Source: Vulcanimicrobiaceae bacterium (lineage in GTDB: Bacteria; Vulcanimicrobiota; Vulcanimicrobiia; Vulcanimicrobiales; Vulcanimicrobiaceae). Taken from it: a stretch of DNA of 64,000 nucleotides. Made by a program: the position numbers and the translations under genes. The notes under the pieces are model-generated. The model did not search any database. It saw nothing but the letters and a program-made list of their open reading frames with translations, and was not told where the DNA came from. The DNA is taken from positions 9,278 through 73,277 of the forward strand of contig DASZHL010000030.1 in assembly GCA_035937855.1 (NCBI GenBank). The letters run 5' to 3'. Below, in pieces: positions 50,032 through 52,890 of the stretch; position 1 is the first letter of the stretch, and each line of letters begins with the position of its first letter.

Positions 50032-50135
50032 GTCTGTGGGCCTTTGGTAGACTCCTCCGCACCGGCATGGCTCCTTGCTTTCGGGGTCGAACGATAGCCT
50101 TGTGAATCTTCTCGATCGGCTTGAAACGACTTTGC
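50032..50135 (+). repeat. direct repeat A: copy of murA promoter region + first ~11 codons
   Basis: 51 nt and 39 nt are identical to 52787-52837 and 52852-52890, separated by a 14-nt diverged block. Confidence 0.95.
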
Positions 50136-50331
50136 TCGATCAATCTAGGCGTGGTTTTGATGCGGAAAAATAGCACGAGGGCGTGGCGCGAGCTGATAAA
50201 ATGGTTGAATTGCATCCCTGCTACTTCTGCGAATTCGGATACCTTCTTCTTCGCCGACAAGGTGAATTTTGGCGTCGGTTGGTTTAGCGTAGTAGTTCCC
50301 GTGTACTTTCCATCGCGCACGATTGTTTTGG

Positions 50332-50802
50332 TCAGAATTCATCATCCTCGACCTCTGGAAGATTGCCGGCTTGGAGTTGCTGGATCGTCTCCTCAAGCAA
50401 TGCTTGGGCATCGTGATCGCCCGCTTTCAATGAGGCAATAGCCGCCCGCTCGTAGGGGTCATCGCCGGAACCCTCCTTGCGTGGGCCAATCTCCAAAACG
50501 TGCACGACGACGACGCTTCCTTCCAGCTTGGCGGTCGCGATGAAGTGGGGCGCGAGGGCCTTGGAGATAGCCCGCAACCGGCCGTATGTCACCCGGTGAT
50601 AGCCCTTGAGTTCGCCAATCAGCGGCTTGCCGATGCTTGGGTTCGCGCCGAACTCGCGGAGTTTTCGGCGCATTCCATCCTGGACTTTTGAAGGAAGCCG
50701 GTCGAACGCGGTCCGTGCATCGGGGGAGAAACCAATGCGGACAAGCACCTGCTTGGGAAGGGCAGTCGGGGGCATTTCTTGCTTCCGTAGCTTCGGTTTC
50801 AC
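50332..50802 (-). CDS. RelE/ParE-superfamily toxin-like protein with ~45-aa acidic C-terminal extension
   Basis: FSPDARTAFDRLPSKVQDGMRRKLREFGANPSIGKPLIGELKGYHRVTYGRLRAI...VVVVHVLEIGPRKE follows the ParE/RelE layout. The tail ...LLEETIQQLQAGNLPEVEDDEF is extra. Confidence 0.55.
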   Translation of the reverse strand: MKPKLRKQEMPPTALPKQVLVRIGFSPDARTAFDRLPSKVQDGMRRKLREFGANPSIGKPLIGELKGYHRVTYGRLRAISKALAPHFIATAKLEGSVVVVHVLEIGPRKEGSGDDPYERAAIASLKAGDHDAQALLEETIQQLQAGNLPEVEDDEF

Positions 50803-50973
50803 TCCCGTGGAGGATAGCGAAAGGTGAGGGTTTTGTCAAATTTACCGTACGAAATTATGCACAGAAATTTGCTATTTCCCCCCATTGGGTGCTAGTATGG
50901 GTGTACGGCGTATATCCATACTCGTAGTATGACCCCTGCATGCAAGATTCGAGGGGGGAACCTTAGGAAGGCT

Positions 50974-51258
50974 ATGATGATGACTCGCACGGTTGCAGCG
51001 GCTGTAGCCCGGGACAATTTGACCGATATCCTTGACGATGCCGAGCAGGGGCGGGCGACGCTGATTTTGCGCCATTCCCGGCCAAGCGCTGCGGTGGTTC
51101 CCGTAGTGGATTTTGAGGCGTACAAGCTCTTTCGCCGGGTAATGCGAGAAGTTGGGGAGACGCTTATTGTGTCTCGTGATCCAGACGTCATCGCCGCTGT
51201 CCGCTCATCCCAGGAAGCCATCAATCGCGGAGAGATCATTTGGGACGACGAGGCGTGA
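50974..51258 (+). CDS. Phd/YefM-family type II antitoxin
   Basis: VAAAVARDNLTDILDDAEQGRATLILRHSRPSAAVVPVVDFE. AGGAAGG RBS before the ATGATGATG start region. Confidence 0.75.
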   Translation: MMMTRTVAAAVARDNLTDILDDAEQGRATLILRHSRPSAAVVPVVDFEAYKLFRRVMREVGETLIVSRDPDVIAAVRSSQEAINRGEIIWDDEA

Positions 51259-51302
51259 TGGAGCGCTGCTGTTTCGCGTGTGATTTTTTCTTCAGGCGTT
51301 AG
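51258..51302 (+). pseudogene. 14-codon stub where the Phd-partner toxin gene would be
   Basis: The ATG overlaps the Phd stop (TGATG coupling), as TA toxin genes typically do, but the frame stops after MERCCFACDFFFRR. Confidence 0.25.
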
Positions 51303-51371
51303 TTTCGTCGGATTGCGTGGGAACGATTGTTCCCAGCGCCGGGCAACGTCGATTCTGCGGCATTCCCAGCG

Positions 51372-52358
51372 CTATATATTTACATTGCGCATAGCTGATT
51401 CGTGATAGCGCGCTCCCGCCGCCGCGCCGATAGGGAACGCATCTTCAATTCTGCGCTTGTCCGCATCGTCGATGTTGACGTCCAGAGACCGGAGATTCTC
51501 TTCCAGGTAGACGCGCCGTTTGGTCCCGGGAATCGGCACGATGTTCCGGTCTTGCGCCAACAGCCAAGCTAGTGCGATTTGTGACGGAGTGGCGTTCTTT
51601 TCCACTGCAATCTCACGTATGACGTTCAATAATTCGAGGTTGGAACTAAAATTCTCGCCTTGGAAACGGGGTGTGTTACGTCGATAATCATCCGCCGGGA
51701 GATCTTCAAAACGCTGAAACCGTCCGGTGAGAAACCCTCGCCCCAGTGGGCTATATGCTACAAAGCCAATCCCAAGTTCTTTCACCGTCGGAAGAATTTC
51801 TTTCTCCAGTTCCCTCGTCCATAACGAATATTCTGATTGCAACGCGGTAATAGGATGGACTGCATGCGCGCGACGAATTGTTCGCGGAGACGCCTCCGAG
51901 AGGCCGAGAAAACGAACTTTCCCCACTCGCACTAGCTCTGCCATCGCTCCTACGGTCTCTTCGATGGGAACGTCCGGATCGACGCGATGCAGATAATAGA
52001 GATCGATCACCTCCACGCCAAGTCGTTTGAGACTGGCCTCGCAAGCCGTTTTTACGTACTCCGGACGCCCATTGACACCGAGAAACGCGCCGTCCTCGCC
52101 TCGCATGTTGCCGAACTTGGTCGCGAGCTGCACGCGATCGCGTCGTCCGCGAATCGCGCGCCCCACGAGTTCCTCATTCCGTCCGATGCCGTACATATCC
52201 GCCGTATCCAGGAACGTGCATCCGAGATCGATCGCGCGATGAATCGATGCAACTGACTCTGCATCGTCTCTACCCGCATAAAATTCAGACATCCCCATGC
52301 AACCCAGACCCAAAGCGGAAACCGTGAACGTACCGAGCGTCCGTATCGCCATCGTCAT
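51372..52358 (-). CDS. aldo/keto reductase
   Basis: [20 protein letters not shown] and YYLHRVD. Start at ATG 52358 with an AAGGAGAGAG RBS. Confidence 0.9.
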
Positions 52359-52716
52359 AGCTCTCTCCTTGCTTGGTCCGGGAATCATGGCTACTTTTGG
52401 GATGCAACAATGCCCTTCCTAAGTAACGCCGATGCATCCTGCTCCGGACCGTTTCACCTTGGCTCGGCACGCAACGTCAGAATTGCCTTTGCGAGACGAT
52501 TAGGGCGAGTAGCCGCCGCCGCGCAGTCGATCTCGGCGCGAGTATACCCACAATCCTTAGGAAACCAGGTTCCCCTCCGTCTCTGCGGTCATGTGAGTGC
52601 ACGAAGCCGGTGTGAATGGTTGCGCCGTGAGCACGGTAATTGCGAGGCGGGCCTTCACCCCTCGATCTGGGGCGTTCGGGAGGTGGAGGATGACGGGGTG
52701 GTCTGAGGTGTCCCGA

Positions 52717-52795
52717 TCAGTATTCGTCACCTTCGACCTCCATTAGATTTCCGGCGTGTAATTGCTGGATCGTCTTCTTGAGCAATGTCTGTGGG
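52717..52795 (-). pseudogene. 3'-terminal remnant of a second RelE/ParE-like gene (tail only)
   Basis: The minus strand reads LLKKTIQQLHAGNLMEVEGDEY*, compared with LLEETIQQLQAGNLPEVEDDEF* at 50332. About 78% nt identity over ~80 nt. The body is replaced by the murA upstream region. Confidence 0.5.
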
Positions 52796-52890
52796 CCTTT
52801 GGTAGACTCCTCCGCACCGGCATGGCTCCTTGCTTTCCGCGGCGAATTGGGGCCTTGTGAATCTTCTCGATCGGCTTGAAACGACTTTGC
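52787..52890 (+). repeat. direct repeat B: authentic murA promoter region + first codons
   Basis: See repeat A. Confidence 0.95.

Follow-up and report, generated by a model that had tools for sequence, protein, structure and literature searches.

A duplicated murA start at a variable insertion spot in a Vulcanimicrobiota bacterium: a probable recombination scar

Introduction

How does the beginning of murA, the gene for the first committed step of cell-wall synthesis, come to lie twice in the same stretch of DNA, once leading into the intact gene and once detached from it? The window analysed here, 64,000 nucleotides from a Vulcanimicrobiota (Eremiobacterota) bacterium, holds two direct copies, A and B, of a 104-nt murA 5´ segment (D1) on either side of a 2.65-kb insert. 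A first-pass annotation of the window took this arrangement for an att-type duplication left by a small inserted element or, alternatively, for a product of illegitimate recombination. Our analysis indicates that the duplication is in all likelihood an ordinary recombination scar, made where insertions are frequent, and neither a mobile element nor a new regulatory device.

Results

Two copies of the murA 5´ segment

Alignment of the two D1 copies gave exactly the identities and positions that the first-pass annotation had listed and bore out its description of an insert bracketed by a duplicated murA 5´ segment. In the left block, 50032-50082 equals 52787-52837 (51/51 nt), and in the right block 50097-50135 equals 52852-52890 (39/39 nt). 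By blastn the copies align over 107 nt with 91.6% identity (E = 7e-38); the repeat is real and far beyond chance. Homology stops abruptly beyond the borders of D1, and of a second repeat (D2) described below, with local alignments of the flanks scoring at the shuffle mean. At the right border of D1, where microhomology of 3-10 bp would be expected of an illegitimate joint, identity ends at …TTGC (50135/52890) and a shared CG follows after one mismatch. A third copy, looked for near atpC, was not found there.

All eight mismatches are confined to a 14-nt block between the two identical blocks (Table 1), and clustering this tight arose in 0 of 1e6 random placements. Such a pattern does not fit decay by point mutation after duplication in situ; it is as expected if the copies stem from different alleles, or if the ribosome-binding region has been rewritten. 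The block in copy B puts GGGG (52850-52852, flanking G at 52853) 3 nt before the murA GTG, and this run may be a ribosome-binding site.

Table 1 Features at the atpC-murA junction, with positions in the window
Feature	Position	Strand	Remarks
Lineage-specific block	43551..52856	.	9.3 kb, between atpC (43137-43550) and murA
U187, hypothetical gene	49432..49995	-	directly left of copy A
D1-A, repeat copy A	50032..50135	+	separated from murA; 70 nt of its upstream sequence and its codons 1-11
Diverged 14-nt block of copy A	50083..50096	+	just upstream of GTG; equals outgroup L001 at 4 of 8 variable positions
Copy A stub ORF	50102..50173	+	murA codons 1-11 followed by 12 unrelated ones, then stop
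X, left end of insert	50136..50331	.	orphan sequence
T156, RelE-like gene	50332..50802	-	family-specific C-terminal tail of ~45 aa; JGI start at 50775
D2-A, second repeat copy A	50332..50402	-	last 23 codons and stop of T156
Phd/YefM-like antitoxin gene	50974..51258	+	divergent from T156; pair conserved in other genomes
AKR, aldo-keto reductase gene	51372..52358	-	
orf98, hypothetical 98-aa ORF	52410..52706	+	JGI call; no family match
D2-B, second repeat copy B	52717..52787	-	3´ remnant of another T156-type gene (…QTLLKKTIQQLHAGNLMEVEGDEY, then stop); abuts D1-B
D1-B, repeat copy B	52787..52890	+	same 104 nt as D1-A, running on into intact murA
Diverged 14-nt block of copy B	52838..52851	+	equals L001 at 1 of 8 variable positions
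Intact murA (UDP-N-acetylglucosamine 1-carboxyvinyltransferase)	52857..54206	+	start GTG 52857

The mismatches bear on a possible origin in a single in-situ event with a long target duplication, in which the 14-nt block would have been rewritten later. Either the 2.65-kb fragment would have been captured at a break whose ~104-nt staggered ends were filled in during end-joining repair, or a replication template switch would have copied 104 nt. One event of this kind yields both sharp D1 borders with no need for pre-existing alleles, and flanking blocks that are 100% identical are as expected for a recent duplication. Eight mismatches clustered in 14 nt are, however, unexpected after duplication in situ, and to our knowledge a stagger of 104 nt lies far above the target duplications made by transposition or end joining. 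We therefore regard an in-situ origin as unlikely.

Copy B leads into the genuine murA, as the first-pass annotation had proposed. Its product matches PF00275 (E = 9e-84, residues 13-417) and shares 73-84% identity with 160 Vulcanimicrobiota homologues over residues 1-449; the start and the N-terminus, MNLLDRLETTLRV, are conserved among relatives, as is the downstream order of Sua5, LptC-like and RarA genes. Copy A has the same first codons and then diverges, also as proposed, and reads VNLLDRLETTLLDQSRRGFDAEK up to its stop. One copy is a stub cut at murA codon 11/12 while the other continues into an intact gene, as a recombination scar would leave them, and we infer that copy A is a dead, non-functional stub of 23 codons. 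The peptides that the antisense frames of the two copies had been said to share are present; for annotation, neither these antisense ORFs nor the 23-codon stub should be called genes.

The structure in independent contigs

The sequence comes from metagenomes, and short-k contigs break within the repeat, as might happen if a chromosomal allele and a separate circle or strain allele had been mis-threaded through the sequence that they share. Contigs from other assemblies speak against such an artefact. The same structure is present in two JGI metagenome assemblies (3300037852 and 3300037846): contig Ga0372960_0000980 covers both copies with 0 mismatches over 18.4 kb, and in the second sample copy A and copy B lie on two separate contigs, each with 100% identity. 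Logan contigs (SRR12659391) end exactly 30 nt into each copy, which is expected for a true two-copy repeat of 51 nt, as Logan assembly uses k = 31. All five near-identical contigs, from two JGI samples and one Logan run, thus either carry the filled structure or break inside the repeat. Moreover, the diverged blocks link U187 through the A block to X, and D2-B through the B block to murA, which a mis-threaded graph could not yield unless such molecules exist. An assembly artefact is exceedingly improbable on these data. Exact-protein look-ups with AKR, U187, T147, X66 and Sua5 returned only this same genotype, in 3300037852, 3300037846 and SRR12659391; the MurA protein itself is not on record in such look-ups.

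Content and ends of the insert

The aldo-keto reductase gene that the first-pass annotation had named in the insert is a solid call (E = 1.5e-77). The RelE-like and Phd labels given to its neighbors hold less firmly. T156 has no match in Pfam, NCBIfam or PADLOC. With a profile of its family (13 sequences), E. coli RelE takes the first four places among PDB matches, the best of them spanning all of RelE with E = 0.028, and some members of the family are labelled RelE by JGI; together these findings point weakly to a RelE-like protein. The Phd-like protein is borderline, falling below the cut-off of PF02604 (28.6 bits against 29.8) and just above that of TIGR01552 (21.2 against 20.8).

The two genes are divergent and ~170-200 nt apart here and at all other family loci examined. 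They are not a two-gene operon but a conserved divergent pair that travels together. The pair resembles type II RelE/Phd-YefM cassettes in combining a small RelE-like protein with a Phd-like protein and in occupying varied genomic contexts among genomes. It differs from them in that the genes are divergent and not co-transcribed, and in that the RelE-like protein is extended at its C terminus by ~45 conserved residues and is missed by the Pfam and NCBIfam models. Homology of this module to other genomes ends at 50339 and 51259, indicating that the insert is itself a mosaic.

Both ends of the insert are unlike the termini of an element. A second direct repeat, D2, which the first-pass annotation had overlooked (79% over 71 nt), places at the right end 71 nt left over from another RelE-like toxin gene, directly adjoining D1-B. 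The left end, X, in which JGI calls a 66-aa ORF on the minus strand (50145-50345), has no homologue in either of the frames tested, whether in a word search of 5.8 billion proteins or in a HMMER search of 1.84 billion representatives. A truncated toxin gene at one end, orphan DNA at the other and sharp stops in homology resemble arbitrary breakpoints. An extension of the toxin remnant into D1, reading 'AQTLL' after removal of 2 nt, was too short to be told from chance or junction microhomology and was set aside.

The atpC-murA junction in relatives

The insert proved to be only the murA-side part of a larger, lineage-specific block between atpC and murA, which also holds genes for an 880-aa secreted protein, an HMGL-like protein, an isochorismatase and an SDR, together with U187; the 2.65-kb insert that had been described is present within it. 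Among the 82 relatives with at least 9 kb of sequence upstream, 34 have an atpC-murA gap of <100 nt and the remainder have inserts of 0.1 to >10 kb. Other lineages carry different inserts at this spot, many of which include a divergent MFS transporter gene. The atpC-murA junction is thus a variable, recurrent insertion spot across the phylum Vulcanimicrobiota.

A second copy of its own murA 5´ region was found at none of 157 related murA loci, though many carry inserts there. The closest other genome has a MurA 84% identical, and scans of genomes and metagenomes gave none closer. Across 185,579 species genomes, JGI's collection of metagenomes and the look-ups by exact protein, neither parental alleles nor an empty site appeared. 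The comparison with related genomes that had been suggested for finding the empty site thus returned none: every near-identical contig has the same structure or is broken in the repeat.

The upstream part of D1 has only a 10-nt motif, CGGCATGGCT, in common with the nearest relative (L001), which stands equally far from the GTG in both; across the window this motif shows no enrichment. We also considered whether the left 36 nt of D1 might be what is left, after a deletion, of the opening codons of a divergent MFS gene like that of L001. The motif was all that the two had in common, and in L001 the MFS gene more likely begins 69 nt upstream of murA, at a GTG that has a strong Shine-Dalgarno sequence.

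Tests for a mobile element

Direct repeats stand at both ends of the insert, as in integrative elements, and the first-pass annotation had weighed an att-type origin on that ground while noting that integrase and transposase are absent. The absence was borne out. A scan of all ORFs in 43.5-52.9 kb and of the JGI Pfam labels of every gene in 43.9-62.3 kb gave no recombinase gene of any kind, and upstream lies the atp operon; the stretch free of recombinases thus reaches from that operon (~34 kb) to 62 kb. The ends of the insert are not paired by any inverted repeat, and there is no tRNA or tmRNA gene in the window. Transposons and insertion sequences leave target duplications of 2-14 bp and have terminal inverted repeats and a transposase; here the repeat is 104 nt long and the other two features were not found. 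An att-type or small-element insertion, as originally proposed, is not borne out by these results or by the 157 related loci.

One form of this idea is a decayed or non-autonomous integrative element of the CIME type. D1-A and D1-B would be its attL and attR, made by a site-specific recombinase aimed at the beginning of murA; with its own copy the element would rebuild the start of the gene, and its integrase would since have been lost or would act in trans. Integrase-made att repeats that rebuild a protein-coding target are known from phage 21 and e14 in icd and from CIMEs in Streptococcus thermophilus. The locus shares with these direct repeats of ~100 nt around foreign cargo, with one repeat copy making the end of the target gene whole again, and a mosaic of identical arms and a diverged core as in some gene-overlapping att sites; a toxin-antitoxin pair is typical island cargo. 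It differs in having no recombinase and no tRNA, in a core that none of the 157 relatives reuses although many have inserts at the same place, and in insert ends made of a gene fragment and orphan DNA. D1 itself has no dyad symmetry and, on both strands, shows no folding advantage over shuffled sequence (z = +1.3 to +1.7), by which we also rejected a structured RNA or attC-like hairpin. Weighing these points, we consider an origin as an integrative element distinctly unlikely.

A regulatory reading of copy A

Selection might instead have kept the duplication for a function, with copy A as a promoter or antisense device. A rightward transcript of copy A would be antisense to the toxin gene and would have the sense of Phd; a leftward one, made as the 3´ end of a toxin mRNA, would be complementary to the site where murA translation starts. 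The perfect conservation of both D1 flanks, with a centre that is not conserved, is in keeping with such a role, as is the position of copy A directly downstream of the minus-strand T156/X unit, with no terminator-like site on the minus strand of 49800-53000.

The murA promoter that the first-pass annotation had placed in D1 is putative. D1 contains no sigma-70-like promoter on the plus strand, and the only sigma-70-like sites nearby are on the minus strand and serve U187 and T156, that for U187 lying outside D1 (50023-49996). A sigma-54 reading of GGCAT-N6-TTGC was rejected by eye, the spacing being one base too long and the element absent from L001. The folding results gave no structure signal, and an Rfam E-value scan of 49000-54000 returned only two eukaryotic snoRNA matches far below threshold. 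The duplication is absent from all relatives, so that conservation of a functional duplication cannot be shown, and the upstream part of D1 has just the 10-nt motif in common with the nearest relative. We judge retention by selection to be very improbable.

A more specific version, in which copy A is alive and transcribed as the 3´ part of a toxin mRNA, so that the toxin-antitoxin cassette throttles murA in trans, is a still longer shot. Copy A lies between the T156/X unit and U187, with no terminator-like site on the minus strand of the region scanned, and could therefore join the toxin mRNA. Were this so, its RNA would be a perfect complement of 39 nt that take in the start codon of murA and its first 11 codons, as well as of 51 nt in the leader of that gene, and the cassette could throttle the first committed step of cell-wall synthesis.

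Discussion

The repeat, its sharp borders, an insert that ends in a truncated gene, the absence of a recombinase or of att-like recurrence, and the insertion hot spot are all observed. On balance, these data make it probable, if by a modest degree, that the structure is a recombination scar, in which two alternative alleles upstream of murA were stacked by short-homology recombination, rather than a mobile element; to that extent the first-pass alternative of an illegitimate recombination product was a fair description. Two versions of the DNA upstream of murA would have existed in the lineage, one ending …U187|D1-murA and the other …X-T156-Phd-AKR-orf98-(toxin remnant)|D1-murA, with only the ~104-nt D1 and murA itself in common. 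A fragment of the second would have recombined with the first through the short homology of D1, either as a circularised fragment in a single, Campbell-type crossover or as a linear piece with a homologous end in murA and an illegitimate joint at murA codon 11/12. By either route the versions would come to lie in tandem, with a murA 5´ stub (copy A) upstream and the intact gene behind copy B.

Both routes have precedents. In E. coli, single crossovers of circular molecules with short homology produce locus duplications of 109-950 bp (Amarir-Bouhram et al. 2011, PMC3240628), and as here the duplicated homologous segment flanks the inserted DNA. With 104 nt, and no perfect run above 51 nt, the homology in the present case is near the lower limit. 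In contrast to those laboratory events with plasmids or transforming DNA, the route, like the parental alleles and the question of which copy is resident, is here something that we infer from the product alone. Homology-facilitated illegitimate recombination joins one homologous and one illegitimate end (de Vries and Wackernagel 2002; Prudhomme et al. 2002, as summarized in a passage of PMC5361080).

A natural parallel is the displacement of Rhs tips (Jackson et al. 2009, PMC2935791) and of T6SS effector-immunity modules (Kirchberger et al. 2017, PMC5361080), which proceeds through circular intermediates or homology-facilitated illegitimate recombination and leaves behind fragments with part of the conserved gene still attached. 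In those systems, as proposed for murA, incoming DNA anchors in a conserved gene and the old variable part is shunted aside instead of being replaced. The displaced fragment keeps a short piece of the conserved gene, so that direct repeats bracket the new module, and successive layers accumulate at one locus with no dedicated recombinase. At murA the geometry is mirrored, as the incoming DNA would be anchored in the beginning of a housekeeping gene, with the variable DNA on its upstream side; moreover, the cargo is no polymorphic toxin tip, and there is one displaced stub and no array.

Some points count against the recombination scar. Classical homology-facilitated illegitimate recombination usually gives deletions and not duplications, according to a passage in PMC3240628. 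Neither a parental allele nor an empty site was found in the related genomes and metagenomes. Finally, a half-diverged centre between perfect flanks of 51 and 39 nt is an odd pattern even where two alleles are involved, and conservation, gene conversion or a local rewrite would be needed to account for it.

If the scar is read correctly, the locus would be a clean natural example, from an uncultured phylum, of short-homology recombination that stacks alleles upstream of an essential gene, with a duplicated gene start as its footprint. It opens no new mechanism or long-standing question unless copy A is transcribed and regulatory. The 104-nt repeats predict a 2.75-kb deletion allele, which would be useful for population studies: the perfect blocks of 51 and 39 nt could allow rare RecA-mediated loss of the 2.75 kb, and the toxin-antitoxin pair in the insert would be expected to counter-select that loss.

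The murA start is duplicated as a 104-nt direct repeat

The start of murA is present twice, as direct repeats of 104 nt (D1; blastn E = 7e-38) that enclose a 2.65-kb insert. Copies A and B are identical at 51/51 and 39/39 bases on either side of a 14-nt block to which all eight mismatches are confined, and clustering this tight occurred 0 times in 1e6 random placements. The positions and identities match those of the first-pass annotation, as do its statements that copy B continues into the real murA (PF00275, E = 9e-84) and that copy A shares the first codons before diverging. 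The GTG or ATG start and the N-terminus MNLLDRLETTLRV are common to relatives, and D1 thus truly holds murA codons 1-11 and 70 nt upstream. In copy A the same 11 codons are followed by 12 unrelated codons and a stop, and this copy is in all likelihood a dead stub; antisense ORFs running across the repeats are probably not genes. A possible ribosome-binding site, GGGG, ends 3 nt ahead of the GTG in copy B; copy A reads GATAG at that place. A second EPSP-synthase-family gene in the window, about 30% identical to MurA, is probably aroA and unrelated to the repeat.

Features of the murA region and related loci (T156, 156-aa RelE-like protein)
Feature	Sequence	Position (strand)
D1 copy A / copy B	window	50032-50135 / 52787-52890
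Diverged block, copy A / copy B	window	50083-50096 / 52838-52851
ORF from copy A	window	50102-50173
murA GTG start	window	52857
Hypothetical gene U187	window	49432-49995 (-)
X, left end of insert	window	50136-50331
D2-A / D2-B	window	50332-50402 (-) / 52717-52787
T156/Phd pair	window	50332-51258
T156/Phd pair	L065	12422-13300
T156/Phd pair	L169	5518-6420
T156/Phd pair	L168	1-799
T156/Phd pair	L176	555-1440
T156/Phd pair and nitrile hydratase genes	L169	4294-6420
rpiB-glyA interval	window	22528-23183
Interval after Phd-like gene	window	51259-51371
Terminator-like hairpin	window	52750-52779 (+)
atpC end	window	43550
atpC-murA junction	window	43551-52856
53-nt repeat in secreted protein	window	44725-44777 / 44809-44861
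murA to Sua5/TsaC-like gene	window	54207-54255
murA to Sua5/TsaC-like gene	L007	11344-12509
Probable aroA	window	7777-9174

The repeat is not likely to be a misassembly, since contigs from three datasets agree. A JGI contig (sample 3300037852) spans both copies, with 18.4 kb matched, no mismatch and one distant 1-nt indel; in a second JGI sample (3300037846), two contigs cover the copies, both at 100% identity. Logan assemblies use k = 31, and the two contigs of SRR12659391 that stop exactly 30 nt inside copies A and B, respectively, show the behavior expected of a short-k assembly at a true two-copy 51-nt repeat. Moreover, the diverged central blocks fix the neighbours of each copy, with U187 and X on the A block and D2-B and murA on the B block, so that the integrated arrangement cannot come from a mis-threaded chromosome and a separate circle. 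An assembly artefact can hence be set aside almost entirely as the source of the duplication. The sole difference from the JGI contig, GGG versus GG in a G-run at 44067, alters the call of a secreted protein (880 aa in the window, 701 aa at JGI); a Logan contig begins exactly there, which suggests that the site is polymorphic or error-prone.

The insert is a mosaic with a toxin-antitoxin-like pair

The insert consists of X, the T156/Phd pair, an aldo-keto reductase gene, a doubtful 98-aa ORF and a toxin-gene remnant. The remnant is part of a second direct repeat, D2 (79% match), missed in the first-pass annotation. D2-A is the final 23 codons and stop of T156, while D2-B abuts copy B with no spacer. 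The D2-B translation, QTLLKKTIQQLHAGNLMEVEGDEY*, can be aligned to the C-terminal tail conserved in the T156 family and its DNA also matches that of two other members, indicating that a further gene of T156 type, truncated to a remnant, forms the right end of the insert. For X, a search of two reading frames gave no homologue. Other genomes match the T156/Phd pair only as far as 50339 and 51259, and local alignments beyond the borders of D1 and D2 found nothing. Together with the truncated right end and the orphan X, these stops indicate a mosaic whose breakpoints are arbitrary. Within the remnant, just upstream of copy B, is a terminator-like hairpin with a T-run; it is weak, and the scan gave fewer such sites than shuffled sequence. 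A functional terminator there would require the murA promoter to be inside D1.

The cargo had been described as RelE-like and Phd. T156 has no match in Pfam, NCBIfam or PADLOC, and the RelE-like label is plausible but weak: the four top PDB matches of a 13-sequence profile are all E. coli RelE (best E 0.028, across the whole RelE length), and some family members are labelled RelE by JGI. The Phd-like protein is borderline in Pfam and just above the cut-off in TIGR01552. The T156 family comprises 12 proteins (12 clusters) in 5.8 billion, whose C-termini bear an extra, conserved tail of about 45 aa, DDPYERAAIAAL…QQL.AG.LPE.EDD. T156 and the Phd-like gene form a conserved pair: here and at every other locus examined the two genes are divergent, about 170-200 nt apart, an unusual toxin-antitoxin layout. 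In the window the Phd-like gene is followed by 113 nt with a 14-codon ORF and then the convergent aldo-keto reductase gene, with no toxin gene, and other T156-family loci likewise lack one there; T156 is therefore the only candidate partner. Elsewhere the pair occurs in unrelated contexts, for example between nitrile hydratase and glyA. In the genome encoding protein P0003 (L169), the pair and nitrile hydratase genes lie between rpiB and glyA; the window's own rpiB-glyA interval contains neither.

Insertions recur at the atpC-murA junction

The genome is placed in Vulcanimicrobiota (Eremiobacterota), and in relatives the atp operon, which maps to 34-43.5 kb of the window, fills the 10 kb upstream of murA. 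In the 82 relatives whose sequence extends 9 kb or more upstream, the gap between atpC and murA is under 100 nt at 34 loci, 100-700 nt at 13, 0.7-3 kb at nine and over 3 kb at 10, with no atpC within 9-10 kb of murA at the other 16. At this position, compared between the window and L003-L167, gap sizes run from 25 nt to more than 10 kb and the cargo differs by lineage; a divergent MFS transporter gene adjoins murA at many filled sites. Insertion has thus taken place here repeatedly in Vulcanimicrobiota as a whole. In the window it holds 9.3 kb, all lineage-specific and patchy in composition (44% to 64% GC), encoding the 880-aa secreted protein, an HMGL-like enzyme, an isochorismatase, an SDR and U187, followed by the 2.65-kb insert, which is merely the part nearest murA. 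The Pro/Thr/Ser-rich linker of the secreted protein contains a 53-nt direct repeat (85% identity). On the other side of murA, the gap to the Sua5/TsaC-like gene is 49 nt in the window and about 1.1 kb in many relatives, where it is probably one gene.

Origin of the duplication

An att-type duplication left by a small element had been proposed. In agreement with the same annotation's remark that integrase and transposase are lacking, no integrase, transposase or other recombinase was found from the atp operon (about 34 kb) to 62 kb; the insert ends carry no pairing inverted repeats, and a tRNA search found none present. A second copy of the own murA 5' region was seen at 0/157 related murA loci, though many of them carry inserts at this position. 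The D1 duplication is a single occurrence, confined to this lineage; it is not an att footprint that recurs, nor an ancient regulatory duplication that has been conserved. A decayed or trans-mobilised integrative element, against which the missing recombinase and the missing recurrence both speak, is a distinctly unlikely source.

The upstream part of D1 had been called the murA promoter, a label that finds no support: D1 has no sigma-70-like site on the + strand, although promoters in this phylum may be of another type. D1 folds no better than shuffled sequence, and Rfam gave no family match. With no promoter, structure or conservation signal, a selected regulatory duplication is improbable. 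Compared with the nearest relative (L001, 84% MurA identity), the upstream part has in common only the 10-nt motif CGGCATGGCT, at the same distance from the GTG (-39 to -30) and not enriched elsewhere in the window. In L001 a divergent MFS gene has its probable GTG start 69 nt upstream of murA, nearly equal to the 70-nt upstream part of D1. At the eight variable D1 positions L001 agrees with copy A at four and with copy B at one, a weak hint that the stub may retain an older version.

On balance, we lean towards a recombination scar as the origin of the duplication and insert. Two alternative murA-upstream versions would have been alike only in D1 and murA, and a fragment of one would have recombined with the other via this short homology. 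A single crossover of a circularised fragment would place resident flank, D1, insert, D1 and murA in that order, exactly the product seen; a linear fragment could give the same product by homologous exchange in murA and an illegitimate joint at resident codon 11/12. In E. coli, single crossovers of circular molecules gave 109-950-bp duplications of the homologous segment (PMC3240628), and in Rhs tips and T6SS effector-immunity modules displaced fragments keep a piece of a conserved gene (PMC2935791; PMC5361080), the same mode of displacement as proposed here. The D1 duplication is a new example of this already known kind of event, and the earlier view of a D1-bracketed insertion or illegitimate recombination product holds. 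The clustered mismatches are a better fit to different allelic origins than to decay after in-situ duplication; a long target duplication formed in situ, via break repair or template switching, for which such clustering is unexpected, is unlikely. Counting against the scar, no parental or empty-site allele of the structure was found, and a further assumption is required to explain why flanks that match perfectly surround a half-diverged centre.

The 51- and 39-nt perfect runs could permit rare deletion of 2.75 kb, a loss that the T156/Phd toxin-antitoxin pair would counter-select. Transcription of copy A is very improbable. As part of the toxin mRNA 3' end it would yield RNA complementary to the murA start region; read rightward, it would yield RNA antisense to the toxin gene.
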